Of a stretch of DNA of 64,000 bases, positions 2,104-47,792 are shown one piece after another; the first letter of the stretch is position 1; each line of letters starts with the position of its first letter. Origin of the DNA: an uncultured Clostridia bacterium (GTDB lineage Bacteria; Bacillota; Clostridia; TANB77; CAG-465); assembly GCA_934149365.1 (NCBI GenBank), contig CAKPEI010000001.1, positions 12,723 to 76,722 on the forward strand, read 5' to 3'. Under the pieces are notes generated by a model that worked only from the letters and a program-made list of their open reading frames with translations, did not search any database and was not told the DNA's origin. The position numbers and the translations under genes were made by a program.

Positions 2104-2156
2104 CTATTTTAATATATGTGTATTTAATAAATATATGAAATTTGTAAAATAAAATA

Positions 2157-2185
2157 TTGACTAAAATAAAAATATATAGTAAGAT
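2157..2185 (+). promoter_or_regulatory. sigma-A-like promoter TTGACT-17-TAAGAT for the leader ORF / pilin-like gene 1
   Basis: TTGACT at 2157-2162, 17-nt spacer, TAAGAT at 2180-2185. An identical promoter recurs at 4324-4352. Confidence 0.5.
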
Positions 2186-2221
2186 AAATACATAAAAAAT
2201 ATCACAAGAGGTGAAAATAAA

Positions 2222-2302
<81 letters not shown>

Positions 2303-2375
2303 AAATGAGCTAGATAGAGGTTTCTGCGCTCAAAAAACAGATGTATTGGATAATAGAAAGTTAGTTATACAGTAA

Positions 2376-2417: not shown

Positions 2418-4313
2418 ATGAAAACGAAGGTAAAATTAAAAAATGGAATATCACTAATAGTACTAGTGATAACAATAATAGTAATGATAGTATTAGCAGG
2501 AGCAGTGATACTAGCATTAAGCAATAGTGGAATAATAGAAAAAGCAACAAGCTCGGCATTTAAGACGGATGTAAAAACAATAAAAGAAGAATATGAATAC
2601 AAAATGGCAGAGCTAAAGCTAAATGATGAGACATTTGACCAAGCGACATTAAATGCTTCAGATACAACATTAAGTTATAATACAAAAACAGAAGAAGGTG
2701 GAAACCTATACAGTATAGTGCCGACAGCAGAAAAGTATAAAGATGAGTTTGAAGTAAGAGATGGAGTGCTAAGATACAAAGGAGAAAATTACAAAAAGTT
2801 AAATTGGGCAGAAGAAGTAGGAATAACAACAAATAGATATGAAATAGTAGATGGAGTATTATTATCATCAAACGCAAACTTGCTACTAGTGGGAACAGAT
2901 GGTAAGATAAGAATACCAAGTAATGTAGTAAAGATAGGAGAGGGAGCATTTAGTAATGTAGACGGATTAAAAGAAGTAACAATACCTGGCAATGTAAAAG
3001 AAATAGGACAAAACGCATTTTCAAGTAACAAAACATTAGAAAAAGTTGTAATGGAAGATGGTGTTAAAACAATAGGTAAGAGTGCTTTTAATCATTGTGT
3101 TTCACTTAAAAGTGTAACAATGACAGATAGTGTTACTGAACTTGGTAGTTTATCTTTTGACTTTTGTTTTAAGCTTGAAAATATTATATTATCAAATAAT
3201 ATAACTAAAATAACTACTAATTTTGGATATTGTTATGAATTAAAGGAACTAAAATTGCCTAAAAATATAACTGAAATAAAAAGTTCTTTTAAGTATGCAA
3301 ATATTAATAAATTAACAATACCAAAGAGCTTATCAAGCATAGTAGATTGTTTTAGTGAAGTAAATGAAATAACAATAGAAAGTGGCAATAACTATTTTGA
3401 GGTTGATGATGGAATACTTTACACTAAGGGAAAAGGAGAATTAATATATATCACTAAATCTAAAAGAGATGAAACTTCGATAACAATACCTGAAAAGGTT
3501 ATTACCTTGAATGCTAATGCATTTTCAAATAGTAAGTTTGAAGTAATAAACTTACCATCAACACTTACTGAAATAACAGGATATTTTAGTTCTAAAAATT
3601 TAAAAGAAATAAATATTTCAGATAGTAATACAATATATAAAAGTAGTAATGGTTCGCTATATAATAAAAATATGACAGAAACAATAGCAATAATATCAGA
3701 TGAAAAATTGGTTAATGTACCAAATGGTGTTACAACAATAGGTTCAAATTCGATGATATTATGTCAAAATGCTGAGAAAATAGTTTTTCCCGAGAGTGTA
3801 ACTACAATATTAGGAAATGCTGTTGCAGCTAGTACTACAGAAATTGAATTGGGGTCAAAAGTAAGCAACATAAAAGAGCTTCCGTTTGGCGCAAATAATA
3901 TTGTAGAAAAAGTTACTATAAATGCTGGTAATCAAACATATTCAGCAGATAATAACTATATATACAAATTAAATTCATCAAAACAAAAAGAAAAAATAGT
4001 TTATGCAATAACTAAAGAAAAGGAACTAACTGTGCCAGATGGAATTGATGAAATATGTGATTATGCCTTTCATAACAAACAAATTACCAAAGTTATTTTA
4101 CCTAATACATTGAAGAAAATAGGAATAGCTAGTTTTTCAGCATCTCTTTTAGAAAATATAGAAATACCAAGTAGTGTTGACACTATAGGAAGTGATGCAT
4201 TTGCTACTTCTACGTTAAAAGAAATAAAAATAAATAAGAAAAAAGGAAGTATAAGTGGAGCGCCTTGGGGAGCTCCAATAGGGGAAAGAGCAATAACATG
4301 GACTCAAAATTAA
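2418..4313 (+). CDS. secreted/surface protein: non-canonical prepilin-like N-terminus plus BspA-type leucine-rich repeat domain (family A, copy 1)
   Basis: RBS GGAGG. N-terminus MKTKVKLKNG|ISLIVLVITIIVMIVLAGAVILALS. Repeated IP.NV..IG..AF......L..V motifs typical of BspA-like LRR. 631 aa. Confidence 0.8.
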   Translation: MKTKVKLKNGISLIVLVITIIVMIVLAGAVILALSNSGIIEKATSSAFKTDVKTIKEEYEYKMAELKLNDETFDQATLNASDTTLSYNTKTEEGGNLYSIVPTAEKYKDEFEVRDGVLRYKGENYKKLNWAEEVGITTNRYEIVDGVLLSSNANLLLVGTDGKIRIPSNVVKIGEGAFSNVDGLKEVTIPGNVKEIGQNAFSSNKTLEKVVMEDGVKTIGKSAFNHCVSLKSVTMTDSVTELGSLSFDFCFKLENIILSNNITKITTNFGYCYELKELKLPKNITEIKSSFKYANINKLTIPKSLSSIVDCFSEVNEITIESGNNYFEVDDGILYTKGKGELIYITKSKRDETSITIPEKVITLNANAFSNSKFEVINLPSTLTEITGYFSSKNLKEINISDSNTIYKSSNGSLYNKNMTETIAIISDEKLVNVPNGVTTIGSNSMILCQNAEKIVFPESVTTILGNAVAASTTEIELGSKVSNIKELPFGANNIVEKVTINAGNQTYSADNNYIYKLNSSKQKEKIVYAITKEKELTVPDGIDEICDYAFHNKQITKVILPNTLKKIGIASFSASLLENIEIPSSVDTIGSDAFATSTLKEIKINKKKGSISGAPWGAPIGERAITWTQN

Positions 4314-4583: not shown

Positions 4584-6503
4584 ATGAAGGTAAAATTAAA
4601 AAAAGGAATATCACTAATAGTACTGGTGATAACAATAATAGTGATGATAGTATTAGCAGGAGCAGTGATACTAGCATTAAGTAATAGCGGAATAATAGAA
4701 AAGGCAACAAGTTCAGCATTTAAGACGGATGTAAAAACAATAAAAGAAGAATATGAATATAAAATGGCAGAGCTAAAGTTAAATAATGAAACATTTGACC
4801 AAACAACATTAAATGCGTCAGATACAATGCTAAGTTATAATACAAAAACAGAAGAAGGTGGAAACCTATACAGTATAGTGCCGACAGCAGAAAAGTATAA
4901 AGATGAGTTTGAAGTAAGAGATGGAGTACTAAGATATAAGGGAGAAAATTACAAAAAACTAAATTGGGCAGAAGAAGTAGGAATAACAACAAACAGGTAT
5001 GAAATAGTGGATGGAGTATTGTTATCATCAAACGCAAACTTACTACTAGTAGGAACAGACGGTAAGATAAGAATACCAAGTAATGTAGTAAAAATAGGAG
5101 AAGGAGCATTTAGTAATGTAGATGGATTAAAAGAAGTAACAATACCTGGTAATGTAAAAGAAATAGGGCAAAATGCATTTTCAAGTAACAAAACATTAGA
5201 AAAAGTTGTAATGGAAGAGGGTGTCACAACAATAGGATTAGGAGCTTTTTATAACTGTACTTTGTTGAAATCTGTAAGTATGACAGATAGTGTGGTTACA
5301 TTAAATGAACAATCATTTAATGGGTGTATCTCATTAAGTGATATAAAATTATCAAATAATATAACTGAAATACCGTATAATTTTTCTGGATGTTCTAGTT
5401 TAAATCAATTTAAATTACCGACTAGTGTTAAAAAAATATCAAATATATTATGGAATACTGCTGTAAAAGAAATTTATTTACCTAGTAGTTTGGAAACAAT
5501 AGGCGGAGGATGTTTTAGAGGGACTAGCCTTAGTAAGATAACAGTTGATAAAGATAATATTAATTTTGTGGTTGAGGATGGAATATTGTACGGTTCTGGT
5601 AAAACATCTATTATATATTTGACAGCAGATAAGAAAAAAGAAGAAAGTATTACAATTGCAGAAGGCGTAACAAAATTAGATGGAATAATTTTTGCAGAAA
5701 GTAGTATACAAAATATATCTTTACCGTCGACCTTGACAACAATAGAAAACTACTTTTCATCTGATAATATAAAAAGTATAACAGTAGCAGAAGGCAATAA
5801 GTATTTTGCTAGCAAGGATGGATCTTTGTATAACAAAGATATGACAAAAACAGTAGCAATAATATCAGACGAACAAAAAATTACTATACCAGAGGGAGTT
5901 ACCTCAATAGGTAGTTATTCACTATATTTATGTAAAAATGCTACTGAAGTAGTATTTCCTGAAAGTCTTAAGAGTATGGGGGCTTATTCAATAACACATG
6001 GTAATAAGTTAACTGCAGTAGAGAAAGTGTCTATTGGAGCTAGCGTTAATGATATAGCACATTTAGCTTTATATAATGGGTATAAGCTAAAAGAAGTTAA
6101 TATAAATTCTGCAAATAGAACATATAGTGCAGATGGCAATTTTTTATACAAATTAAATAGTAGTGGTGTTAAACAGGAAATAGTAGAGGCGATTGTTAAT
6201 GAATCAAATGTAACAATACCGGAGGGAATTAAAAAAATAGGAAAATATGCTTTTTATAACAATAAAATTGTAAACATAACATTACCTAGCACGTTAACTG
6301 AAATTAGTGATAGTGCATTTTCATCATGCTATTATTTAAATAATGTGCAAATACCAAGCGGTGTAGATACTATTGGTAGTAATGTTTTTTCAGCTTGTAG
6401 ATCTCTTAAGAGTGTAAAGATAAATAGGAAAAAAGGAAGTATAAGTGGATCTCCATGGGGAATACCAATAGGGGAAAGAGCAATAACATGGGCTGAAAAT
6501 TAA
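4584..6503 (+). CDS. secreted/surface protein: prepilin-like N-terminus plus BspA-type LRR domain (family A, copy 2; tandem paralog of 2418..4313)
   Basis: 639 aa. First ~210 codons nearly identical to copy 1. LRR region diverged. Last ~24 aa conserved (KKGSISG.PWG.PIGERAITW). Confidence 0.8.
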   Translation: MKVKLKKGISLIVLVITIIVMIVLAGAVILALSNSGIIEKATSSAFKTDVKTIKEEYEYKMAELKLNNETFDQTTLNASDTMLSYNTKTEEGGNLYSIVPTAEKYKDEFEVRDGVLRYKGENYKKLNWAEEVGITTNRYEIVDGVLLSSNANLLLVGTDGKIRIPSNVVKIGEGAFSNVDGLKEVTIPGNVKEIGQNAFSSNKTLEKVVMEEGVTTIGLGAFYNCTLLKSVSMTDSVVTLNEQSFNGCISLSDIKLSNNITEIPYNFSGCSSLNQFKLPTSVKKISNILWNTAVKEIYLPSSLETIGGGCFRGTSLSKITVDKDNINFVVEDGILYGSGKTSIIYLTADKKKEESITIAEGVTKLDGIIFAESSIQNISLPSTLTTIENYFSSDNIKSITVAEGNKYFASKDGSLYNKDMTKTVAIISDEQKITIPEGVTSIGSYSLYLCKNATEVVFPESLKSMGAYSITHGNKLTAVEKVSIGASVNDIAHLALYNGYKLKEVNINSANRTYSADGNFLYKLNSSGVKQEIVEAIVNESNVTIPEGIKKIGKYAFYNNKIVNITLPSTLTEISDSAFSSCYYLNNVQIPSGVDTIGSNVFSACRSLKSVKINRKKGSISGSPWGIPIGERAITWAEN

Positions 6504-6549: not shown

Positions 6550-6559
6550 ATTATAGTAA

Positions 6560-6719
6560 TTATTTATTACCATAGACAGTAGGTTACTTAAAATATTAAG
6601 TTAGAAATCCTACCGAGGTGAAAGTTAATATTGATAATAGTTCTTATGAATTGATATAGATATATACTATCACCTTGTGGTGATAGTATTTTTTATCTTA
6701 GAGGAGGTGCAAAAGCGAA
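6560..6719 (+). ncRNA. probable ribosomal protein L10 leader (autoregulatory 5' UTR)
   Basis: ~160-nt untranslated leader between the promoter and rplJ. Inferred from the known L10(L12) leader architecture, not from a structure check. Confidence 0.35.
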
Positions 6720-7229
6720 ATGCCAAGTGCAAAAGTTTTAGAAAAGAAACAAGCTCAAGTAAAAGAGATTGCTGAAAAGCTTTCAAAATCTAAGATGACT
6801 GTATTTACAGATTACAGAGGTATCACTGTTGAAGATGATATGAATCTTAGAAAAAAATTAAGAGAAGCTGGTTGTGAATGTGCAGTAATCAAGAACACTA
6901 TTTTAAAACTTGCTGCAAAAGAAGCAGGAATTGAAATAAATGAAGACACATTTGAGGGGCCAACATCAGTTATATTTAGTTATGATGACGTTGTAGCACC
7001 AGCTAAAGTTGCATATGAATATGCAAAAGACCATGAATTCTACAAATTTAAAGGTGGAGTTATGGAACAAAAAGAAGTGAGCAAGGAAGAAATGATGAAA
7101 CTTGCAAAACTACCTTCAAAGGAAACACTTCTTACTATGCTTGCATCTGCATTGCTTGGAAATATACGTAACCTAGCAGTTGTAGTAAATGAAGTAGCAA
7201 AGCAAAAAGAGGAAACAGCTAGTGCCTAA
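6720..7229 (+). CDS. rplJ: 50S ribosomal protein L10
   Basis: 169 aa. RBS GGAGGTG. Sequence characteristic of L10. Confidence 0.9.
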   Translation: MPSAKVLEKKQAQVKEIAEKLSKSKMTVFTDYRGITVEDDMNLRKKLREAGCECAVIKNTILKLAAKEAGIEINEDTFEGPTSVIFSYDDVVAPAKVAYEYAKDHEFYKFKGGVMEQKEVSKEEMMKLAKLPSKETLLTMLASALLGNIRNLAVVVNEVAKQKEETASA

Positions 7230-18752: not shown

Positions 18753-18830
18753 GGTGGGTATAGCTCAGTTGGTTAGAGCGCTGGTTTGTGGCACCAGAGG
18801 TCATGGGTTCGAATCCCATTACCCACCCCA
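18753..18830 (+). tRNA. tRNA-His (anticodon GTG) with G-1
   Basis: Cloverleaf folded by eye: acceptor GTGGGTA/TACCCAC, anticodon stem CTGGT/ACCAG, loop TTGTGGC, encoded CCA. Confidence 0.85.
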
Positions 18831-18843
18831 CTAAAACAAATAT

Positions 18844-18918
18844 TGGGATGTAGCCAAGCGGTAAGGCACCACACTTTGACTGTGGCATTCGTTGGTTCGA
18901 ATCCAGCCATCCCAGCCA
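18844..18918 (+). tRNA. tRNA-Gln (anticodon TTG)
   Basis: Acceptor TGGGATG/CATCCCA, anticodon stem CCACA/TGTGG, loop CTTTGAC, encoded CCA. Confidence 0.8.
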
Positions 18919-21399: not shown

Positions 21400-21474
21400 T
21401 GGCTGGGGTACTAGGATTCGAACCTAGGAATGTCGGAATCAGAATCCGATGCCTTACCACTTGGCGATACCCCA
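21400..21474 (-). tRNA. tRNA-Gln (anticodon CTG)
   Basis: Reverse complement folds with acceptor TGGGGTA/TACCCCA, anticodon stem TCGGA/TCCGA, loop TTCTGAT, CCA encoded. Confidence 0.8.
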
Positions 21475-26235: not shown

Positions 26236-27432
26236 ATGAGAACAAAAGTTAAACTAAAAGGCGGAATATCATTAATAGTATTAGTAATAACAATAATAGT
26301 AATGATAATACTAGCCGCAGCAATAATATTATCGCTATCAAACAGTGGAATAATAGGAAAGGCAAATAAAGCAAAGACAGATACAGACATATCAAATGCA
26401 AAAGACTTAGTGGCTATGGCTCATGCAGACTGGATGCTAGATGAGGCAAAGATAAAAGAGAACGATGATACAATAACATCATTTAGTAACTATGCAGAAA
26501 AGAAATTACAAGAAGCAGGATATAAAGTAGGAGCAGGAGAAGGAGCATATACAGTAACAGAAGATGGAGAAGTATATACAGGTCTAACAGAAACAGCAAG
26601 AGCAGGAATAACAGCAGGAATAAAAATAGGAGATGAAGTAAAGTATAATGCAGTACTAACAGCAAAAAGAACTACAACAGACGGAAGTGAACAAAGTTCA
26701 ACAGGAGCAGCAGATATTACGAAGAAACAAACAGTAAAAACAAATACAAGCTATACATGGAAATATATAGGATTAGGAGAAGATGGAAGTTTACTTATAG
26801 CGCCAGATATGACAGGGACAATAGGAGCAGACTATAAATTAATATTAGGATATAAAGGAGGTTATATAAATGGACCAAAAATGTTAAATACAATATGTGA
26901 TATTTTATATACAGTAGAGGGAAAAGGAAAAGCTCAAAGTATGAATATAGACATAGTAAACAAAATATTAGAATATAATGGACCAAAAGGAAGATACTAT
27001 GATGCAAGTAGTAATACAGTAGAAACAACAGAAGCAATGACAATAGCAGAATTGGAAACAAAATTTAATAGTAAATTAGCAAGAGATTATGTGCCAGAGG
27101 GGAAAGATTTAGGAGAATATAAATCAGACTATTATTACATAAACAAAACATACCATGCAAGCAGAATAACCAAAGATACAGTGAAACAAAATCTAGTATA
27201 TCAAGCAAATACATATTGGCTTGCTTCTCCGTGTGTCGATGCGAATTTGGACATCGGTTATGCGAGTTTCCATGTACGCTGCGTTAACTCTACTAGCGTG
27301 GACGCGACCAACATGTTCAATCCGTATGTCTCCGATAGTAGCTTTCCCTGCGCTGTCCGTCCGTATGTTTCTCTAACATCTAATGTCCAGAAAACAACAG
27401 AAAATGGAAAAACAGTATGGACATTAAGCTAG
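26236..27432 (+). CDS. secreted/surface protein: prepilin-like N-terminus plus C-terminal YWLASPCV domain with candidate variable region (family B, copy 1)
   Basis: RBS AAGGGGG. N-terminus MRTKVKLKGG|ISLIVLVITIIVMIILAAAIILSLS. 398 aa. Confidence 0.8.
   Translation: MRTKVKLKGGISLIVLVITIIVMIILAAAIILSLSNSGIIGKANKAKTDTDISNAKDLVAMAHADWMLDEAKIKENDDTITSFSNYAEKKLQEAGYKVGAGEGAYTVTEDGEVYTGLTETARAGITAGIKIGDEVKYNAVLTAKRTTTDGSEQSSTGAADITKKQTVKTNTSYTWKYIGLGEDGSLLIAPDMTGTIGADYKLILGYKGGYINGPKMLNTICDILYTVEGKGKAQSMNIDIVNKILEYNGPKGRYYDASSNTVETTEAMTIAELETKFNSKLARDYVPEGKDLGEYKSDYYYINKTYHASRITKDTVKQNLVYQANTYWLASPCVDANLDIGYASFHVRCVNSTSVDATNMFNPYVSDSSFPCAVRPYVSLTSNVQKTTENGKTVWTLS
27239..27372 (+). other. candidate DGR-type variable region (GC-rich, NNC-codon-rich 3' segment)
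   Basis: Composition shift (gcg, ccg, cgc, gac, gtc codons) in an otherwise AT-rich gene. Differences from paralogs fall at first/second codon positions. Confidence 0.45.
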
Positions 27433-27915: not shown

Positions 27916-30132
27916 GTGATAAAGAAAATGTTTAAGGGTATATTTAAAAGAAGAAAGGTTGCATATGTAGGGCTCATGCTTGGCGCGTTTTGTGTGTTTG
28001 GTAAGTGTTATGCTGCAAGTTATGCGACTTCAACGATTTCAGATAGCTTCCCAGCAAGTTATCAATCATATATAAATAGATTAAAAAGTAGTCATCCTAA
28101 TTGGAATATTAAGGCTTTTTATACACATTTAGATTGGAATACAGTTCTTAATTCGGAGTCAAAAGGAACATATTCAAGAGTTCAAAATTCGGCATATGGT
28201 GATGCATGGAAAAGAACAGAAGCAGCAAATGATAGTTCATATAATGCAGCAGGTTTTGTACTTGCTTCAAGAGCTGCAGTAGCATATACATTGGACCCAA
28301 GGAACTTCTTAACAGATGAAGGAATATTTCAATTTAGGGTAATAGATAAAGATGTGGCTTCGGATACAGAAACTGCTGTAAAAGAAGTTGCACATAGTAC
28401 ACCAATGTACACAAATGATTATGCTAGTATTATAAAGAAAGTGGGAAATGATAAGAATATAGCTCCAACTTTTATAATATCAAGAATAAGACAAGAAACA
28501 GGTTGTGATACTGTAAATAACGGAAGTATAAATGGTAAAAACTCTAAATATCCTGGTTATTATAACTTCTTTAATATTGGAGCAAGAGATGGAAATGGAG
28601 CTGTACAAGCTGGTATAAATTTAGCACATACTAATGGATGGAATACACCAGAAAAAGCTATTGCAGGTGGAATGGACTGGCTAAACAAAAACTATGTTAA
28701 ATGGGGACAAAGTACAGTATATTTCCAAAAGTTTGATGTAGCAAACCCATATGGTAATGCAACAACGCTTCTTTCTATGCAGTATATGTCTAATATATCT
28801 GCACCAATGGGAGAGGCCAAAATTGCATATAAAGGAATTGAGAGGGCAGGTATATTAAATAACACATACACTTTCTATATTCCAATATATGATAATATGC
28901 CATCAATAGCTTCACCTAGTCCAACTATAGGGTACTATGAAAATGATAGCACAATGGTATATCTAGATGACCCAGATACAAATGATAGCTACGATACTTT
29001 TAAAATAAGGTCAACAGCGGACTCTTCTAGTTCTAGTAATGTAGTGTATACATTAAAAGAGTCTAGTGATATAAATAAAAAGACAGCAATGACAAGAATA
29101 AAAAAAGGCATTGATACTGGTTGGGACTATGTTGAGTTTGAAGTAAATGGTCAAAAGATAGAAGGCTATGTATGGAACTATTATGTATTTGAATATTCAT
29201 ATACTAAAGTAACAGCAATATCTTTAGATAGTGCAAACAAAACATTAAAAGTAGGCGATACTTTTAAACTTTCAGCTACAATAGAACCTTCAAATGCTAA
29301 ATTTAAGGATGTAACATGGAGTAGTTCAAATAATAACGTGTTAACAGTAGACAGTAATGGTAATGTTAAAGGAGTTGCAGCAGGTTCAGCTATTGTAACT
29401 GCTACAACAAAAGACCAACAAAAAACAGCTACATGCACAGTAACAGTTACTGATAAAGACCCAAGTATATCTTTAGATAAAACTAAATACAGTGTAGTGA
29501 GTGGAAAGTTAACACCTTTTAGTGTTGATATAGAATATACTGACGTGTCAGATTATGATGTGAAAATAGAGGATGAAAATATTGCTAAAATTCAAGATGG
29601 AAAAATATTAGGAGTTAAAGAAGGAACAACTAAATTAATTGTTACTTTAAAAGGAACTAATATAAAGGCAGAAGCAGAGATTAATGTAATTGAGATAAAA
29701 GAGGGAGATATAGTAATTGATAGTTCTTTAGATGTGAATAATGATGTTGTATCAAATATATCACCTGAAACAAAAGCACAAGATATAATTGGAAAAGTTC
29801 AATCTTCATACACAGTAGCATTAAAAAATAAATCAGGAGAAACATTAACAGGAGATGCTTGTGTTGGAACGGGAAGTAAAATTCAGATTTTAGATAATGC
29901 AGGTACGGTTATATATGAGTACACAGTTTTAATATATGGAGATGTAACTGGTGATGGTAAAATAACTTCAAAGGACTATATGGCAATTAAAAATCATATA
30001 ATGGGAACGGCTACAATTACAGGAATAGAAGCAAAAGCAGCAGACAGTTTTAGAGATAATAATATAACTTCAAAAGACTATATGATTATTAAAAATCATA
30101 TAATGGGAACATCTGTGATTAGTCAGAAATAA
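27916..30132 (+). CDS. secreted multidomain protein: GH73-like glucosaminidase (putative peptidoglycan hydrolase) domain, Big_2 Ig-like domains, C-terminal type I dockerin
   Basis: Signal peptide. RQETGCD...YNFFNIGA (GH73-like). Big_2 (VTWSSSNNNVLTVDSNGNVKGVAAGSAIVTATT). Dockerin repeats GDVTGDGKITSKDYMAIKNHIMG twice. 738 aa. Confidence 0.7.
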   Translation: MIKKMFKGIFKRRKVAYVGLMLGAFCVFGKCYAASYATSTISDSFPASYQSYINRLKSSHPNWNIKAFYTHLDWNTVLNSESKGTYSRVQNSAYGDAWKRTEAANDSSYNAAGFVLASRAAVAYTLDPRNFLTDEGIFQFRVIDKDVASDTETAVKEVAHSTPMYTNDYASIIKKVGNDKNIAPTFIISRIRQETGCDTVNNGSINGKNSKYPGYYNFFNIGARDGNGAVQAGINLAHTNGWNTPEKAIAGGMDWLNKNYVKWGQSTVYFQKFDVANPYGNATTLLSMQYMSNISAPMGEAKIAYKGIERAGILNNTYTFYIPIYDNMPSIASPSPTIGYYENDSTMVYLDDPDTNDSYDTFKIRSTADSSSSSNVVYTLKESSDINKKTAMTRIKKGIDTGWDYVEFEVNGQKIEGYVWNYYVFEYSYTKVTAISLDSANKTLKVGDTFKLSATIEPSNAKFKDVTWSSSNNNVLTVDSNGNVKGVAAGSAIVTATTKDQQKTATCTVTVTDKDPSISLDKTKYSVVSGKLTPFSVDIEYTDVSDYDVKIEDENIAKIQDGKILGVKEGTTKLIVTLKGTNIKAEAEINVIEIKEGDIVIDSSLDVNNDVVSNISPETKAQDIIGKVQSSYTVALKNKSGETLTGDACVGTGSKIQILDNAGTVIYEYTVLIYGDVTGDGKITSKDYMAIKNHIMGTATITGIEAKAADSFRDNNITSKDYMIIKNHIMGTSVISQK

Positions 30133-30151: not shown

Positions 30152-31501
30152 ATGATTAAAAACAAAAGAATAAAATATTTATCAATATTTATGTTGATGT
30201 TTGTGTTTGCTATAACTAACTTTGTGTATGCAGCAGGAAGCTTTAGTGTAAGTGCTAACAAAACATCATTAAATCCTGGAAATACAGCAACTATAACAAT
30301 AAAGACAAATAATTGTGCAGGTAAGTTTAGTGTTTCATCATCAAATACTTCAGTTGCAACTGTATCTACAGGTTCAACTTGGGTAGATGGAACTGCTACA
30401 ATAACAGTAACAGCTAAAGCAAATGGAAGTGCTAATATAACGGTGACACCAGTTGATGTGTCTGATACAGACTTAAATGATGTTACTGGTAGTAAATCAG
30501 TTACTATAAAAGTAACAACACCTTCTAGTAATACAAATACTAACAAGCCAAGTAGTGGTAGCAATTCTAATAGTAATACAAACAAGAATAACAATAGCAA
30601 TAAAAATAATACAAGTTCAAAATCTTCAAATGCTAATCTTAAAAATATGATACTTAGTGTTGAAGGCCTTTCACCTGCATTTGCTAAAAATATCACATCG
30701 TATTCTCTAAAAGTTGGGGAAAATGTGGATACAATAAAGGTAAATGCTTCAGTTGAACATAATAGAGCTTCTTATTCAGTATCAGGTAATACTAATTTAA
30801 AAGTTGGAGAAAATATAATTACAGTAAAAGTAACAGCAGAAGATGGTACTGTAAAAACATATAAAATAACTGTACTTAAATCAGATGATCCAGTAAAATC
30901 TGATGCAACACTTTCTTCTGTTATAATTGAAGATGTAAATTTAGGGCAGGCATTTGACCCTAATGTTACTGAGTACAATGCAGGAGATATAACTGTTAAA
31001 TCAAGTAAGCTTAATATTTTAGCTTATCCAAATAATGATAATGCTAAAGTTGAAATATTAGGTAATGAAAATTTGGGCGTTGGTGAAGGAAAAATAACAA
31101 TAAGGGTTACATCTGAAAATGGAAAAGTAACTAAAGATTATGTAATAGCTTTTAACAAACTTTATGCAGAAACTAATGCAAACAATGTGGATATATATGG
31201 TGATTCTTTAAGAGCAAGAGAAAATAACAAACCATCATTTTGGTCAAAACTAAAAGATTGGTATGAAGCAAACTTAAAAGAACACATGACAGTTATTGTG
31301 CTATATGTATTTGTTTGGGTAGAATTTTTACAAGTAGTATATTTATATGAAAGATTAAGAAAATATGAAGATTTAGATAAAATAACTGTTGGTAAAAGAA
31401 TAAATAGAGAAGATAAAAAAGAAAAAGCTCCAAAGGAAGAAAAACCAAGAAGAGCAAAACAAAATCCTGTATTCCCTGAAGAAACAGAAAATAAAGAATA
31501 G
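30152..31501 (+). CDS. membrane-anchored partner protein: N-terminal Ig/cohesin-like domain, Ser/Asn/Thr linker, two cadherin-like beta-sandwich domains, C-terminal transmembrane anchor and charged tail
   Basis: Signal peptide. L..LS...G.LSP.F......Y...V cadherin-like repeats. C-terminal transmembrane segment IVLYVFVWVEFLQVVYLY then a KE-rich tail. 449 aa. Confidence 0.65.
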   Translation: MIKNKRIKYLSIFMLMFVFAITNFVYAAGSFSVSANKTSLNPGNTATITIKTNNCAGKFSVSSSNTSVATVSTGSTWVDGTATITVTAKANGSANITVTPVDVSDTDLNDVTGSKSVTIKVTTPSSNTNTNKPSSGSNSNSNTNKNNNSNKNNTSSKSSNANLKNMILSVEGLSPAFAKNITSYSLKVGENVDTIKVNASVEHNRASYSVSGNTNLKVGENIITVKVTAEDGTVKTYKITVLKSDDPVKSDATLSSVIIEDVNLGQAFDPNVTEYNAGDITVKSSKLNILAYPNNDNAKVEILGNENLGVGEGKITIRVTSENGKVTKDYVIAFNKLYAETNANNVDIYGDSLRARENNKPSFWSKLKDWYEANLKEHMTVIVLYVFVWVEFLQVVYLYERLRKYEDLDKITVGKRINREDKKEKAPKEEKPRRAKQNPVFPEETENKE

Positions 31502-31680: not shown

Positions 31681-33888
31681 ATGAATGAAAAAAGGGTAAT
31701 TAGTTTAAATAAAATGATAGCTTTAATATGTATGCTATGTACTTTTTTTATAGGAAGTAAAGTTTTTGCTGCAACTAAGAGTGTAGGAATAGATAGTTTT
31801 CCAAGTAGTTATCAAATATATTTAAAACAAATTCAAAAGCTCCATCCTAATTGGACATATACAGCACTAAATACGGGGATTGATTGGAATACGGTCATAA
31901 AAAACGAAGGACCTAGTGTAGATTTAAAAAGAAGTGCTATAGGAATTTCATTTGCTGATGTGTGGAAATGGAAAAATAGCAATGGTGCATATAATTTAAT
32001 AGAGCCAGGTTGGGTAACAGCATCTGAGCTTGCTGTGGCATATAGTATGGACCCAAGAAAATACATAAATGAAATGCAAATATTTCAGTTTGAAACTTTA
32101 AATTATGACTCTAGTGTCCAAAATCAAACAGGTGTAGAAAAGATATTTTATGGTACTTTAATGTACCAAAAAAATATCTCATATATAGATACAAATGGGA
32201 AAACTCAAACAATAAATAAAACGTATAGTAAAGTGGTAATGGAAGCTGCTGCAAAATATGGAGTAAGTCCATATCATTTAGCGTCTAGAATAAAACAAGA
32301 AACAGGTTGTGATATACAAAATAACACATCTATAAAAGGAAATGTGTCTGGCTATGTTGGACTATATAATTATTTTAATATAGGAGCAACGGGAGGAAGT
32401 AATCCTGCTATATCAGGACTTGCATATGCAAGAAGTGTAGGATGGACCACTCCGGAACTTGCAATAAATGGTGGTGCAGAGTTCTTATCTCAGAAATATA
32501 TAAATAAAGGGCAATATACTACATATTTGCAAAAATTTAATGTAAATGATAATAGTTCATATAGCTTATACACACATCAATATATGCAAAACATATTAGC
32601 TCCATCTTCTGAAGCTGTAAATACTCATAGTGCCTATTCTAAGATGGGTTTACTTGACATACCTTTTAATTTTGTAATACCAGTGTATGACAATATGCCA
32701 AACTTACCTGTAGATATATATACAGAAAATCCATCTGACTATGTGAAAGATAGCACAAAAGTGTATTGTACAAGTAATTTAAATATAAGGTCGGGAGCCG
32801 GAACTGGTAACAGTGCATTACTCACAGCACCTAAAGGCACAGTTATGACTAGAATAGCAAGAGGTGTTCAAGCAGGAGAAAGATGGGATAAAGTAAGGTT
32901 AGATACAGGACTTGAAGGTTATGTATTCCAGAGCTATATTAAAGAATGTTCATATACTAAGGTAACAGGTGTACAAATTAGCAGTGATGAAATTGATGTT
33001 GAAGTGGGAAAAGAGACTAGTCTAAAAGCAGAAGTATTACCAAGTAATGCTACATACAAAGATGTTACATGGAGTTCAAGTGATAGTAACATAGTAAGTG
33101 TAAGTCAAGACGGAAAAGTAACTGGAGTAAAAGAAGGTATGGCATATGTAACTGTTAAGAGTGATGACCAACTAAAAGAAGCAAGATGTGTTGTAAATGT
33201 AGTAAAGAAAAAAGAACCAAAACTAGAACTTGATAAAGATACATATATTGTTTTAAAAGGAAAGTCTACTAAACTTAATATAACTACATTAAATGTTGAT
33301 AACCCAGAGTATGAAATAGCTGTTCAAAATGAAGAAATTGCTAAAGTAGAAGAAAATAAAATATATGGAATAGAAGAAGGAGAGACAAATATAACAATAT
33401 CACTTGTAGGTACAACTCTAAAGGTTCAAGCTAAAGTTAAAGTAGTTGATATAAAAGAAGGAGAAATAAAAATTAATGAAAGTATAAAAGTAGAAGAAGA
33501 TATTATTAGTAAAATAGAACCAGAAACTACAATCTCAAGCATATTAGATAAAATTGAAACCTCATATGATGTGAAAGTAAAAGAGAAATCAGGAAAAAAT
33601 TTAGGTGAAAATGATATTGTTGGAACTGGAAGTAAAGTTCAGATTTTAGATAGTGCAGGTGCGGTAATATATGAGTATACAGTTTTAATATATGGAGATG
33701 TGACTGGTGACGGAAAAATAACGTCAAAGGATTATATGGCAATTAAAAATCATATAATGGAAACAAGCAGGTTAAATAAAATAGAACAAAAAGCAGCAGA
33801 TAGTTTTAAAGATGGCAATATAACCTCAAAGGATTATATGATAATAAAAAATTACATAATGGGTGTAAGTAAAATAAATCAAGAGTAA
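31681..33888 (+). CDS. second GH73-like/Big_2/dockerin secreted protein (paralog of 27916..30132)
   Basis: 735 aa. Same domain order. Dockerin GDVTGDGKITSKDYMAIKNHIME...DGNITSKDYMIIKNYIMG. Confidence 0.7.
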   Translation: MNEKRVISLNKMIALICMLCTFFIGSKVFAATKSVGIDSFPSSYQIYLKQIQKLHPNWTYTALNTGIDWNTVIKNEGPSVDLKRSAIGISFADVWKWKNSNGAYNLIEPGWVTASELAVAYSMDPRKYINEMQIFQFETLNYDSSVQNQTGVEKIFYGTLMYQKNISYIDTNGKTQTINKTYSKVVMEAAAKYGVSPYHLASRIKQETGCDIQNNTSIKGNVSGYVGLYNYFNIGATGGSNPAISGLAYARSVGWTTPELAINGGAEFLSQKYINKGQYTTYLQKFNVNDNSSYSLYTHQYMQNILAPSSEAVNTHSAYSKMGLLDIPFNFVIPVYDNMPNLPVDIYTENPSDYVKDSTKVYCTSNLNIRSGAGTGNSALLTAPKGTVMTRIARGVQAGERWDKVRLDTGLEGYVFQSYIKECSYTKVTGVQISSDEIDVEVGKETSLKAEVLPSNATYKDVTWSSSDSNIVSVSQDGKVTGVKEGMAYVTVKSDDQLKEARCVVNVVKKKEPKLELDKDTYIVLKGKSTKLNITTLNVDNPEYEIAVQNEEIAKVEENKIYGIEEGETNITISLVGTTLKVQAKVKVVDIKEGEIKINESIKVEEDIISKIEPETTISSILDKIETSYDVKVKEKSGKNLGENDIVGTGSKVQILDSAGAVIYEYTVLIYGDVTGDGKITSKDYMAIKNHIMETSRLNKIEQKAADSFKDGNITSKDYMIIKNYIMGVSKINQE

Positions 33889-33902: not shown

Positions 33903-35126
33903 ATGAAAATTAACAAATTAAATTATTTAAGAATATTTGCTATTCTTCTAGTATTTTTTGTAGTAAGCAAGGTGCAAGCTGCGGGAACATTTAGTGTAAG
34001 CACAAACAAAACATCTTTAAAGCCAGGAGAAACTGCAACAGTTACAATAAAAACTAATAACTGTGCTGGAAAATTCGGAATAAGTTCATCTAACACTGGA
34101 GTTTTAACAGTATCTACAGGTTCAACTTGGGTAGATGGAACAGTAACAGTTACAGTAACTGCAAAAGCTAATGGAACAGCTAGTATATCAGTAAACCCAA
34201 TTGATGTATCAGATAATGATTTAAATGATGTAAAGGGAAGTAAATCAGTTAGTATAAAAGTAGCAACTCCACAAACTACTACCACTCCAAGTACGTCTGG
34301 CACTACAGGAAGTAATAAAACTACGGGAACAACTAAACCTTCTACTAGTAAAACTAGTACTACTACAAAATCAGTAAGCAATAATGCGTATTTAAAAGAA
34401 TTTCGAGTTGATAGACCTGGCATTTCACCTAGTTTTAACAAAAATACATTTAACTATTCTATTACAGTTGATGAAAGTGTAGATAAACTAAATGTAACTG
34501 CAGTTCCAGAAAACAGTAAGGCAAGTGTTAGTATAACCGGAAACACTGGTTTAAAAACAGGTGATAATGTTATAACGGTAAAGGTTGTAGCAGAAGATAA
34601 AAAAACAAGTAAAGTGTATAAAATATTTGTAACAAAAGCAGATGATGAAGCAAAATCTAATGCGTATTTACAAAACCTAATAGTATCAAATATGACACTA
34701 ACACCAGAATTTTCTAAAGAAATTTTTGAATATAGTTTAGGAGACATTTCATATGATGTGGAAAAACTTGAAATATCTGCATTTCCAGTTAATGAAAAAG
34801 CTAAAGTTGAAATAACTGGAAACGATAAACTTGTGGTTAATGAAAATACTATAAAAATAACAGTAACATCTGAAAACTCTAAAGTTCAAAAGGTATATAC
34901 ATTAAAGGTAAACAAAAAAGAGGGTGTAAGTAAAGAAGAAAACAAGCAATTGGAGAGTAAGGAAGAGGAAAGTATGCTTGTTGATAAGTGGTCCAATATT
35001 AAAATAGCATTGAAGGAAAAAGCCCCTATACTTTGGTTATATGCTTTTGTTTGGGTAGAATTTTTACAAGTAGTATATCTATATGAAAAGCTTAAGAAAA
35101 AAGATGATGTAACTCATATAAAATAA
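33903..35126 (+). CDS. second membrane-anchored cohesin-like/cadherin-like partner protein (paralog of 30152..31501)
   Basis: 407 aa. Same architecture and the same C-terminal transmembrane motif FVWVEFLQVVYLYEKL. Confidence 0.65.
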   Translation: MKINKLNYLRIFAILLVFFVVSKVQAAGTFSVSTNKTSLKPGETATVTIKTNNCAGKFGISSSNTGVLTVSTGSTWVDGTVTVTVTAKANGTASISVNPIDVSDNDLNDVKGSKSVSIKVATPQTTTTPSTSGTTGSNKTTGTTKPSTSKTSTTTKSVSNNAYLKEFRVDRPGISPSFNKNTFNYSITVDESVDKLNVTAVPENSKASVSITGNTGLKTGDNVITVKVVAEDKKTSKVYKIFVTKADDEAKSNAYLQNLIVSNMTLTPEFSKEIFEYSLGDISYDVEKLEISAFPVNEKAKVEITGNDKLVVNENTIKITVTSENSKVQKVYTLKVNKKEGVSKEENKQLESKEEESMLVDKWSNIKIALKEKAPILWLYAFVWVEFLQVVYLYEKLKKKDDVTHIK

Positions 35127-37279: not shown

Positions 37280-37354
37280 TGGTGACCCCTACGGGAATCG
37301 AACCCATGATTCAGCCTTGAGAGGGCTGCGTCTTAACCGCTTGACCAAGGGGCC
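37280..37354 (-). tRNA. tRNA-Glu (anticodon CTC)
   Basis: Reverse complement folds: acceptor GGCCCCT/AGGGGTC, 3-bp D-stem GTC/GAC as in tRNA-Glu, anticodon stem CAGCC/GGCTG, loop CTCTCAA, CCA encoded. Confidence 0.7.
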
Positions 37355-37772: not shown

Positions 37773-38942
37773 ATGATGAAAAACTTAAGAAAAAACAAAA
37801 GCGGAATATCACTGATAGTATTAGTAATAACAATAATAGTAATGATAATACTAGCAGCCGCAATAATACTATCACTATCAAATAGTGGAATAATATCAAA
37901 AGCAAACAAAGCCAAAACAGATAGTGATACAGCAAATTTAAAAGAGTATGTAAATACACTAAGAGCAGAATGGGAGTTAATGACAGCAGAAAAACAGGCA
38001 GAAGAAGGTTCATTTGTAGATTATGCAAATTCAAAGTTAGCTGAGAAAGGTTATAAAGTAATGCTATCAGATGACGGAGTACTAATGAATGAAGCAGCGA
38101 CAGCTGCAGTAAAAGCAGGAATAAAAGTAGGAGATACAGTAACAGGGTATACATTGGATGTGGCTACATATACAACAGACGGAAGTGAGAATACATGTGA
38201 TGCAAAAAAACAAGAAGAAACAGATCCACAACCACAAGAAGTAACAGCAAATACGCAGCTAAGATGGAAATACTTAGGAGTAAATGCAAATGGAGAACTA
38301 GAAATAATGGCAGATTTAGGAACAACAGAAGTTGCAGCAAATACAAAAGTAACATTAGGCGGAAAAGGTGGTTATTTAAAAGGACCAGATATGTTAAATA
38401 CAATATGTGAAAAATTATATTCAAAAGATGGAGTAGGAACAGCAAGAAATATGAATATAGATGATGTAAATAATATATTGGGTTATATAGGAGAAAAGGG
38501 ATCATATTACTATATTGATGACGAGTACACACCAACTAAAGAAGCAAAAACAATAGCTACGTTAGAAAGCGAATTAGGAATGACATTAGATGGTAGAACA
38601 ACACCAGATGGAAAAGACTTAGGAATGTACTATTTAGATTATTACAATATAAGTAGAACAGATGATGTAAAAAAGATGAAAAAACCAGGGAATGTGGATT
38701 TAGTATACAATGCTAAAAATGAATACTGGCTTGCTTCTCCGTGTGTCTCTGCAATGTTCTTCGGCAACATGGCGACTTTCAGTGTTCGCTATGTTAACTC
38801 TGCTGCTGTGGGCGGGAACGGCGTGTTTAGTTCGTATGACTACTTTGCCGGCCATACTTATGCGGTCCGCCCTGTAGTAACTTTAAATTCTAATGTTAAA
38901 TTAACACCAAATGCAGATAAAACAGAGTGGGGAATAAGTTAG
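37773..38942 (+). CDS. secreted/surface protein: prepilin-like N-terminus plus YWLASPCV C-terminal domain with candidate variable region (family B, copy 2)
   Basis: ATG 37773 after RBS GGGAGG. The ORF-track start 37692 runs through the RBS. N-terminus MMKNLRKNKSG|ISLIVLVITIIVMIILAAAIILSLS. Confidence 0.8.
   Translation: MMKNLRKNKSGISLIVLVITIIVMIILAAAIILSLSNSGIISKANKAKTDSDTANLKEYVNTLRAEWELMTAEKQAEEGSFVDYANSKLAEKGYKVMLSDDGVLMNEAATAAVKAGIKVGDTVTGYTLDVATYTTDGSENTCDAKKQEETDPQPQEVTANTQLRWKYLGVNANGELEIMADLGTTEVAANTKVTLGGKGGYLKGPDMLNTICEKLYSKDGVGTARNMNIDDVNNILGYIGEKGSYYYIDDEYTPTKEAKTIATLESELGMTLDGRTTPDGKDLGMYYLDYYNISRTDDVKKMKKPGNVDLVYNAKNEYWLASPCVSAMFFGNMATFSVRYVNSAAVGGNGVFSSYDYFAGHTYAVRPVVTLNSNVKLTPNADKTEWGIS
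38748..38880 (+). other. candidate DGR-type variable region
   Basis: 16 of ~41 codons are NNC. GC-rich patch. Confidence 0.45.
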
Positions 38943-46019: not shown

Positions 46020-47792
46020 ATGGAAAATATCAAACATACAGACAAAAGTTCTAAAATTTTTGCTGTAGTTTTATCAGTAGCCGTAGTACTAGTAGCAGCG
46101 ATTGTGCTAGGTATTATAGGAATGAACAGCTTAAATGGTAAAGTTGAAACTACTGAACAGCACGCATTAAAATCAGTAGCAAACGATGAAGAAAATGTGA
46201 AAACTTTAGGTAGCATTCAAAAAGAAATTGACGTTGTTAAAACAGAAGTAAATGAGGTTAAAGCTAAAGCTGATGAAAATATATTATCATCAGAAGAAAA
46301 CCTAACTGAAATAAACAATGTTAAAGAAAAAATAGTTAGTATCAAAAATGATATAAATAGTGTAGTAGCAAAAGAAGCAACTGTAAAAGAAAAAGCAGAT
46401 GAACTTCTAGATACATTAAATAAAATGGAAGAAAAATTATATGCTACAATAGAAACACTAAAAACTGAAGCAAAAGCATATATAGATACTACAAAAAATG
46501 AAATAAATACAAATACAGATACAAAAGTATTGGCTGCACAAACTGCTATAAATACAAATGTAGATGAAAAATACGTTTTATTAAATACTAGAATAGCAGA
46601 TGCAGAAGCTGCAATAAACGCAAATACAGATGCAAAAATATCAGCAGCGCAAACAGCAATAAACGCAAATACAGATGCAAAAGTATCAGCAGCGCAAACA
46701 GCAATAAATGGAAATACTGATGCAAAAATATCAGCAGCGCAAACAGCAATAAATGCAAACACAGATGCAAAAGTATCAGCAGCCCAAACTGCAATAAATG
46801 GAAATACAGACGCAAAAATATCAGCAGCGCAAACAGCAATAAATGGAAATACAGATGCAAAAGTATCAGCAGCCCAAACTGCAATAAATGGAAATACTGA
46901 TGCAAAAATATCAGCAGCGCAAACTGCAATAAATGGAAATACTGATGCAAAAGTATCAGCAGCACAAACAGCAATAAATGCAAATACTGATGCAAAAGTA
47001 TCAGCAGCCCAAACTGCAATAAATGGAAATACTGATGCAAAAATATCAGCAGCACAAACAGCAATAAACGGAAACACTGATGCTAAATTAGCTGCAAGCT
47101 TTACAGATTTAAAAACTGATTTAAATACTGAATTTTCAAAAATATCAGATAGATTTGATGATGTGGACACTGCTTTATTTAATTTAAAATCTGACGTAAC
47201 TTCATTGCTAACAGCTAATACAACTGTAGGAACTAAATTAACTTCTATAGAAACAAAAGTTACTTCAATAGAAGGAAGTGTCTTAGGTATAAACACAACA
47301 CTTGCTGGAATAAATACGAGCATAACAGGAGTTAATACAACACTTACTGGAATAAATACAAATATAACAGGAGTTAATACATCCCTTATTGGTATTACAA
47401 GTAGTTTAACCGGTGTAACTACTACACTTACTGGAGTAGATGGTAAGTTAGATACAGCTAATTCAAACGTATCAGCAATAAACACAACAGTAACAGGTAT
47501 AAACAGTAATGTATCAATAGCTTTAACAGAAATTTCTGAATTAAAAAATAAAGTTGCAAATATAGGAAGTGGAATGACTGGTATAAGCTCAAAAATTGGA
47601 ACAGCTGCAGATACTAGTGCTAGCACAACATTATTTGGAAAAATGGCAGGTATAGTAAATGATGTATCTGGAATAAATGCTAAACTATCTACAATGGATG
47701 GTAAATTAGATAGCATAATGACTAATACTAACTGGCTTGGAACTTTAACAGATGCTCAAATAAACAAATTAAAAACAATATTGAATAGTTAA
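46020..47792 (+). CDS. membrane-anchored repetitive coiled-coil protein with ~14 tandem 13-aa repeats (SAAQTAINGNTDAKI/V) and a second T-G-I/V-N-T-S/T repeat region
   Basis: RBS GGAGG. N-terminal transmembrane segment. 39-nt periodic DNA from ~46600 to ~47100. Confidence 0.75.
   Translation: MENIKHTDKSSKIFAVVLSVAVVLVAAIVLGIIGMNSLNGKVETTEQHALKSVANDEENVKTLGSIQKEIDVVKTEVNEVKAKADENILSSEENLTEINNVKEKIVSIKNDINSVVAKEATVKEKADELLDTLNKMEEKLYATIETLKTEAKAYIDTTKNEINTNTDTKVLAAQTAINTNVDEKYVLLNTRIADAEAAINANTDAKISAAQTAINANTDAKVSAAQTAINGNTDAKISAAQTAINANTDAKVSAAQTAINGNTDAKISAAQTAINGNTDAKVSAAQTAINGNTDAKISAAQTAINGNTDAKVSAAQTAINANTDAKVSAAQTAINGNTDAKISAAQTAINGNTDAKLAASFTDLKTDLNTEFSKISDRFDDVDTALFNLKSDVTSLLTANTTVGTKLTSIETKVTSIEGSVLGINTTLAGINTSITGVNTTLTGINTNITGVNTSLIGITSSLTGVTTTLTGVDGKLDTANSNVSAINTTVTGINSNVSIALTEISELKNKVANIGSGMTGISSKIGTAADTSASTTLFGKMAGIVNDVSGINAKLSTMDGKLDSIMTNTNWLGTLTDAQINKLKTILNS
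46600..47100 (+). repeat. 39-bp tandem coding repeat array (~13 units)
   Basis: gcaaatacagatgcaaaa(a/g)tatcagcagc(g/c)caaac(a/t)gcaataaa(c/t)g units read directly. Confidence 0.85.

Follow-up and report, generated by a model that had tools for sequence, protein, structure and literature searches.

Three paralogous genes of a gut Clostridia bacterium end in probable remote variable regions of a diversity-generating retroelement

The window analysed here is a 64-kb stretch of DNA from an uncultured Clostridia bacterium (GTDB lineage TANB77, CAG-465; contig CAKPEI010000001.1, positions 12,723 to 76,722). It encodes three paralogous surface proteins, g1, g2, and g3, and the 3′ ends of their genes stand out by their composition. 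Very likely, these ends are variable regions (VRs) written by a diversity-generating retroelement (DGR), of which the three genes are remote targets. The VRs are homologous to an adenine-rich template repeat (TR) that lies beside a reverse transcriptase (RT) gene on contigs of related bacteria, and they differ from it predominantly at template adenines. In DGRs, which vary the ligand-binding ends of proteins at the cell surface, the TR is transcribed, and the RT together with Avd makes a cDNA with misincorporation opposite template adenines. This cDNA replaces the VR, anchored by a GC-rich initiation of mutagenic homing (IMH) element at the VR 3′ end, and only TR codons with adenine, mostly AAC or AAT, are randomised.

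Adenine-directed variation in the 3′ regions of g1–g3

The composition of g1–g3 switches abruptly. Upstream of the codons for W-L-A-S-P-C-V, the genes contain 46–48% A and 32–33% GC, while the next ~149 nt contain 13–17% A and 51–56% GC. The switch begins with an A-free 19–21-mer and ends with CG(C/T)CC(C/T)GTAG. The original prediction, made from the letters of this DNA, had pointed to GC-rich ends of the three paralogs, and a ranking across the whole window bears this out. The segments it had delimited have GC fractions of 0.49, 0.51, and 0.53 (window, 0.30) and A fractions of 0.17–0.20 (0.46–0.48 in the remainder of the genes), and rank in the top 0.1–0.3% for GC and the bottom 0.1–0.3% for A among all 134-nt segments of the window. 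The regions were thus located, but their boundaries had to be shifted: The spans homologous to the TR begin ~20 nt earlier and finish ~5 nt before the proposed ends, namely at ...CCGTAG (CCGTATG in g1). Of the gene starts, that of g2 was moved from 37773 to the second ATG, while the ATG proposed for g3 (53699) proved to be out of frame by one base relative to the rest of the gene.

The framework on both sides of the variable stretch is conserved, as had been claimed. In a codon alignment, YWLASPCV precedes the stretch and (A/C)A(V/I)RP(V/Y)V follows it, and WLASPCV is encoded in all three genes by one identical A-free 21-mer, TGGCTTGCTTCTCCGTGTGTC. The window contains just three copies of this 21-mer (at 27217, 38727, and 54683), while chance predicts 0, and the core common to TR and VRs begins two bases later. 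Pairwise paralog differences at codon positions 1/2/3 amount to 0.41/0.44/0.30 within the variable stretch and to 0.29/0.28/0.33 in the rest of the genes. The proposed excess at the first two codon positions is therefore found, and reversed elsewhere, whereas the view that third positions are conserved was overstated.

The mismatches between window VRs and template are strongly concentrated at adenines. With the TR of contig L017 as reference and Fisher's test for the window VRs, 21 of 44 adenine sites but only 14 of 104 other sites are changed in g1 (p = 2.9e-5), 26/44 versus 14/105 in g2 (p = 3.2e-8), and 26/42 versus 10/104, plus a 3-nt deletion, in g3 (p = 2.3e-10). In g1, the first 110 nt of the VR retain 85% identity to the TR, while the 3′ third and the IMH-like end (GCTGTCCGTCCGTATG) have diverged from the template. 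The VRs of cis targets, i.e., of the family members that form part of the retroelement cassettes, differ from the TR at 19/44 (L017), 25/44 (L020), and 29/44 (L021) adenine sites and at 0/105 other sites in each case. The corresponding counts are 20/44 and 3/105 for a remote paralog of a related genome (L011), and 28/44 and 7/105 for a family VR copy on a 1.4-kb JGI contig (L014).

L020 and L021 have identical TRs, and their VRs differ at 25 positions, all of them TR adenines, with 1 difference in the other ~3.7 kb. As nearly all differences lie in the VR, and within it only at A sites, the retroelement is active in this lineage. Likewise, two family proteins, P0011 and P0015, have 328 residues without any difference, while 17 of their 40 VR residues diverge.

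The same signature extends over the family. In 60 unique family VRs, a mean of 36.8 of 40 residues is reachable from the TR by A-to-N changes, compared to 20.5 (maximum 25.9) in a column-permuted null, and 16 of the 60 are fully TR-compatible. An alignment of 89 forty-residue VRs displays scaffold columns (A,F,A,F,V,R,V,S,V,F,S,S,A,V) conserved in 74–89 of the 89 sequences. The remaining columns hold mostly D, Y, G, N, S, C, F, R, and I, which are products of AAY codons, while K, Q, W, M, and E are rare. Lacking adenines in its coding sequence, the scaffold is spared from randomisation.

Target genes, VRs and IMH-like boundaries in the window (aa, amino acids; ORF, open reading frame)
Feature	Coordinates	Strand	Details and basis
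g1, target paralog, 398 aa	26236..27432	+	ORF, translation, paralog alignment
g2, target paralog, 388 aa counted from second ATG	37776..38942	+	Paralog alignment; AlphaFold2 model
g3, target paralog, 378 aa as open frame	53765..54901	+	Open frame
VR of g1	27219..27367	+	TR-homologous region; starts at A-free core GCTTGCTTCTCCGTGTGTC
VR of g2	38729..38877	+	TR homology; IMH-like end GCGGTCCGCCCTGTAG
VR of g3	54685..54830	+	TR homology; 3 nt short of template; end GCAATTCGCCCCGTAG
IMH-like 3′ VR boundary of g2	38862..38877	+	GC-rich, consensus GCGGTTCG(C/T)CCCGTAG; TR/VR homology end
IMH-like boundary equivalent of g1	27352-27367
IMH-like boundary equivalent of g3	54815-54830

Template and cassette in related bacteria

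For the protein database search, we used a synthetic “TR peptide” in which Asn was placed at the variable VR columns. Its best matches were 78-aa ORFs (80–92% identity) on 0.5–0.7-kb contigs. On L015, the 78-aa ORF directly follows a bAvd gene, and a search with this Avd led to the complete cassettes of L017, L018, L019, L020, and L021. On L017 (3.2 kb, Hadza gut metagenome), the cis target is a member of the family, and it is accompanied by a 144-aa MutS_I protein, bAvd, a 149-nt TR (1762–1910, 44 adenines), and a 317-aa RT. The cassette is the same on L020 (48-kb contig) and L021 (7-kb contig) from two further samples, while L018 (in a metagenome-assembled Clostridia genome at NCBI) and L019 (a Logan contig) are relatives with 75%-identical Avd and the same cassette type. 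The original prediction had proposed to look for an A-rich homologous repeat beside avd and an RT gene, and on these related contigs the repeat lies between the two.

The individual components fit a DGR. The RVT_1-type RT (316–317 aa) is encoded 110–420 nt downstream of the TR in L017–L021, the 110 nt of L018 being counted from the TR ORF. Its best PDB match is the 328-aa chain 8ub7_A (E = 8.5e-28), whose depositors name it “Reverse transcriptase” only and which we take to be the enzyme of the Bordetella phage DGR (bRT); group II intron RTs match at 9e-12. Avd, encoded directly upstream of the TR, matches PF22296 (bAvd); against NF033474 it scores 39.8 bits (E = 4.3e-10), which is under the curated cut-off of 80 bits. 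A MutS_I protein of 144–163 aa is encoded between cis target and avd in L016–L021. Further, full-length but sub-threshold matches to the Rfam family RT-14 (RF02921; 31–36.5 bits at three loci, gathering score 48.1) begin exactly at the 3′ boundary of the TR and lie upstream of the RT gene (L017 1911–2065, L018 10519–10662, and L020 5158–5313). This segment is probably the structured DGR spacer RNA of the clade. L020 harbors a second small MutS_I/MutS_C-like gene (1923–2315, minus strand, 130 aa) upstream of the cis target, which is also present in L021.

The GC-rich motif that had been put forward as candidate IMH gains support from the template, since TR homology stops exactly there. Beyond the core GCGGTTCG(C/T)CCCGTAG the flanks differ, with TTTCTCTAAAA in the VR and CTTCTATAAAC in the TR; in L017 and L020, the VR goes on with TTTCTCTAAAATC right after ...CCCGTAG and the TR with CTTCTATAAACTGAGG. 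Within the window, this core has acquired 2–3 changes in g2 and g3 and ~5 in g1.

Other searches yielded less. A scan of public collections with the 21-mer TGGCTTGCTTCTCCGTGTGTC returned 0 viral matches, 0 matches in GTDB genomes, and three JGI contigs with VR copies only. The TR escaped this probe, as it has GTGCTTGC... in place of the TGGCTTGC... of the VRs. Searching GTDB genomes with the family alignment gave mostly N-terminal matches in other Clostridia, a single locus matching residues 30–335 at 31% identity (L005), and no cassette, and a search of phage databases gave nothing relevant. On L015 (1–705) and L022 (1–604), avd and TR are joined straight to the 3′ tail of a target gene and its downstream sequence, and the junctions coincide with the IMH common to both or with VR bases that are unchanged. 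As L017 and L020 reveal the true 3′ flank of the TR, the joins are most simply assembly paths through the TR/VR repeat, and the 78-aa ORFs are probably not real genes; the joins may also represent a circle excised by recombination between VR and TR.

Taken together, the cassette of this lineage of low-GC human-gut Clostridia comprises, in this order, cis target, MutS-like gene, bAvd, 149-nt TR, a probable structured spacer RNA, and RT, and we propose that it serves a dispersed paralog family, with g1–g3 as remote (trans) members. The genome of the window would carry a cassette of this kind outside the window, and the three copies would have been written some time ago and now be decaying or rarely rewritten.

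Age of the window copies and competing explanations

A number of observations weigh against DGR-written VRs in g1–g3. In a sensitive blastn search against the window, the three regions match only one another and no TR; there is no RT-type YxDD ORF in the window, and tblastn with the RT, Avd, and MutS-like proteins of the relatives finds nothing in the 64 kb. The original prediction had already noted that RT gene and template repeat are missing here and had regarded the genes as remote targets, a status in line with a cassette-free 64 kb. The cassette link for the window genes rests on related contigs, and the identity of one window protein to a protein on a contig carrying the family member P0025 signifies relatedness, not cassette presence. 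Downstream of the VRs, no GC-rich hairpin of the type known from Bordetella phage BPP-1 was found. Although the mismatches to the TR are strongly concentrated at adenines, as had been anticipated, each window VR also contains 10–14 non-adenine changes compared to 0–3 in fresh VRs, so that none would qualify as strictly “A-to-N only”, and the VR of g3 carries an indel, which retrohoming does not normally yield. We also considered that a cassette had been deleted beside g1, or that it sits at a position syntenic with L018, and rejected this as there is no flank homology. Other observations bear on the age of the VRs. The VR of g2 differs from that of its orthologue P0001 at 10 positions, of which only 3 are TR adenines, as expected by chance. 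The g3-type VR (39 residues) is also present in five protein clusters and in L012, the N-terminal half of which is a different mosaic; these copies are either identical or changed at three positions.

The three window VRs are probably old and rarely or no longer rewritten, given their non-adenine changes, the deletion and frameshift of g3, the degraded IMH of g1, the g2 orthologue, and the shared g3 VR. The non-adenine substitutions are mostly private to each copy. The g2 protein and P0001 (L001–L003) are 96% identical, and the strains are 97.4% identical over 19 kb. VRs within the same 90% cluster are identical in the five readable multi-member clusters, save one single-residue difference. 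The heterogeneity between isolates that had been suggested as a check is thus absent from the window genes, where strain comparisons reveal no re-diversification, whereas the cis target of the lineage is hypervariable between strains (25 A-site-only differences versus 1 elsewhere). Similarly, the median number of TR-incompatible residues per VR is 1 for the cis-like tail (SLK...), 6 for the g2 tail class, and 4 for the g3 tail class. Decay appears clearest in g3, with its 5′ frameshift and the 3-nt VR deletion, and in g1, with its degraded IMH. Outside its VR, g2 contains a 73-bp tract (37992–38064) with 16 differences to the orthologue, while the adjoining 710 bp have 0 (background, 2.6%). 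Judged by sequence comparison, paralogs have recombined here, in the part of the gene that encodes the N-terminal helices.

The age of the copies could be judged differently: g1–g3 might be currently active remote targets that are rewritten episodically, with a TR variant in the genome's own cassette explaining most of the non-adenine mismatches. We regard this as possible but rather unlikely. The DGR of the lineage is demonstrably active on its cis target, and TR variants do exist, as the TRs of L022 and L020 differ at 17 of 148 positions and the L022 TR explains every one of the four “incompatible” residues in P0101. Some “incompatible” columns (7, 35, and 23) recur, which suggests other templates with AAC at these places, and the IMH cores of g2 and g3 are nearly intact. 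In addition, the non-cis tail classes include fully TR-compatible VRs (P0005, P0020, and P0089), so that the g2 and g3 classes may still count among the targets. However, the mostly private mismatches of g1–g3 cannot be explained by a single variant TR, and L022, tried as a better template for g1 or g2, fits worse. Further, the g2 orthologue displays no re-randomisation at a genome divergence of 2.6%, the frameshifted g3 has the same VR, or nearly so (three positions), in five clusters, and the VRs of members of one 90% cluster are identical or nearly identical.

A more radical alternative dispenses with the retroelement altogether. The VRs would then result from ordinary mutation, diversifying selection, and gene conversion among paralogs, and their richness in GC and NNC codons would reflect the amino-acid preference of a binding surface. 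Mosaic recombination of paralogs is indeed real, as the tract in g2 demonstrates, and the differences between orthologous VRs of g2 and g3 are not adenine-specific. Yet the invariant scaffold codons are A-free (CTT GCT TCT CCG TGT GTC) in genes that otherwise contain 47% A, and since this is a synonymous codon choice, selection on the protein cannot explain it. The A-bias of the mismatches (p ≤ 3e-5), the exclusive change of adenines in cis VRs, the reachability of family VRs from the TR, and the matching A-rich template beside Avd and RT in relatives likewise speak against this explanation, which we consider highly improbable.

Target family, genomic context, and biological implications

The three proteins belong to a large family of 1326 database clusters (90% identity), nearly all from ENA gut metagenome assemblies, that has no Pfam or NCBIfam match in profile searches; searched against Pfam, the C-terminal halves gave no match even at E ≤ 10. 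g1 and g3 share 49–58% amino-acid identity with g2, and at least four family paralogs are located on the 301.6-kb contig of this genome. The g3 protein is identical to P0113, encoded on a 301,600-bp NCBI/ENA contig, while exact look-ups of g1, P0113, and P0047 returned no contig. In g1, a hydrophobic, pilin-like N-terminal helix is followed by a beta domain in the middle and by a C-type-lectin-like C-terminal domain that holds the VR. AlphaFold2 models g2 confidently, with a pLDDT (predicted local distance difference test score) of 91.5 at full length and 93.2 for the C-terminal 204 residues. As the original prediction had proposed to check, the C-terminal domain models as a C-type-lectin-like fold, and in this model the VR maps to its predicted ligand-binding face.

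At the N-terminus, the model contains a long hydrophobic helix (H13–36 and H39–68). The search for a type IV prepilin motif was negative: The sequence G-ISLIVLVITIIV lacks Glu at +5, and no N_methyl domain is detected with Pfam or NCBIfam. The helix is therefore termed “pilin-like”, and the proteins are not classed as pilins. The same N-terminal module, KxGISLIVLVITIIVMIVLAGAVILALSNSGII, is found with different bodies in two tandem genes of the window (2418–4313, 631 aa; 4584–6503, 639 aa), and on L011 (5179–6312) the helix module is fused to a C-terminus of the FGE-sulfatase type, a classic DGR-target fold. This anchor or pilin-like helix is thus a module common to several surface-protein families of the organism.

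The reading frame in front of the helix is offset in some members. In g3, the signal or anchor helix is truncated because the natural ATG is one base out of frame, and the gene is a probable pseudogene or in an off state. This ATG lies 28 nt before the G-I-S-L codons (GGAATATCA..., window 53699–53765), and in the cis target of L020 and L021 (2940–3010) an ATG 25 nt before the G-I-S-L codons is likewise out of frame. Both offsets fall within an A-rich stretch, reading …AGAAAGC and …CAAAAAGC, whereas g2, which is in frame, has …CAAAAGC. For 46 of 120 representatives of the family, an internal Met (MIIL…) is the sole called start. The 5′ frame offset could be an on/off frame switch, the mark of a pseudogene set, or a recoding site. 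It is conceivable, if speculative, that one cassette of MutS-like (MSL) gene, Avd, TR, and RT serves the adhesin-like family of >1,300 clusters, that one-base frame switching in the A-rich stretch before the helix turns its members on and off, and that retired VRs are kept as an archive. If true, on/off phase variation would be combined with DGR sequence variation, and retired VRs such as those of g1–g3 would constitute a standing archive of past specificities.

The window, with ~30% GC, is densely packed with genes, the majority on the plus strand. As it contains housekeeping genes (MiaB-like, GlmM) together with dockerin/Big_2 surface proteins, it represents bacterial chromosome and not phage. 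Between g1 and g2 lie two duplicated gene pairs (27916–30132 with 30152–31501, and 31681–33888 with 33903–35126), each encoding a protein with Big_2 plus dockerin followed by a cadherin-like protein; the dockerins imply cohesin-mediated surface display in this organism. The ORF 46020–47792 contains a tandem array (46611–47087) of 10.6 copies of a 45-bp unit with 91% matches, equivalent to a 15-residue protein repeat, and its copy number is apparently unlike that of L001, as the alignment breaks there. A ribosomal protein L10 leader (RF00557, 60 bits) is positioned 5′ of 6720–7229. Four tRNA genes are present; one lies upstream of g2, at a distance of ~420 nt and in opposite orientation (leader and tRNA features at 6552–6704, 18754–18915, 21403–21474, and 37283–37354).

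DGRs with MSL genes have been described as “Architecture D”, with an MSL gene in the Legionella DGR (Wu et al, 2018; PMC5758913). Like these, the relatives of the window genome encode a small MutS_I protein on the same strand as avd, TR, and RT; their target has a VR at its end, and the element is chromosomal and not phage-associated. They differ from the Architecture D examples in the host, here an uncultured low-GC lineage of gut Clostridia, in a target family with a pilin-like helix and no Pfam domain, and in the second, oppositely oriented MutS_I/MutS_C gene that precedes the cis target in L020 and L021. In Treponema, a DGR has up to seven non-adjacent targets, recognised by A-to-N-only differences from the TR (PMC5758913). 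The arrangement of one cassette with several dispersed paralogous targets and C-type-lectin-type VRs resembles that of Treponema denticola (TvpA), which, however, has an HRDC accessory gene in place of MSL plus Avd, and the window copies are not A-to-N-only. With the DGR of phage BPP-1 (Mtd/bRT/bAvd), the system shares adenine-specific mutagenesis and Avd. In both, too, the RT follows the TR, and the VR has a GC-rich IMH at its 3′ end and forms part of a C-type-lectin fold at the C-terminus. In contrast, the BPP-1 DGR is phage-borne with a single adjacent target and no MSL, and no hairpin like that of BPP-1 is detected after the VRs here. DGRs of gut Bacteroides diversify type V pilus tip adhesins with C-type-lectin heads (bioRxiv 10.1101/2024.11.15.621889). 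They belong to another phylum and have a different N-terminal module (a hydrophobic helix without lipobox in our family), they are carried by conjugative elements, and they are not described as diversifying a large family of dispersed paralogs. Hence, remote DGR targets and the MSL architecture are known as a system type; what is new is which proteins are targeted and in which host lineage, how many dispersed paralogs there are, and that a series of decay is visible.

Our analysis assigns a mechanism and a likely role, that of variable ligand-binding tips, to a large unannotated family. The closest Avd genes and cassettes lie mostly on contigs of 0.5–7 kb, with the 48-kb L020 as sole exception, because the TR is a repeat of many VRs. 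Such short contigs are of the kind that binning tends to drop, and metagenome-assembled genomes, among them the source of this window, are consequently likely to lack cassettes and may display “orphan” VRs. With fresh, ageing, and frameshifted VRs side by side in one family, these genes provide a natural series for the recruitment and retirement of DGR targets.

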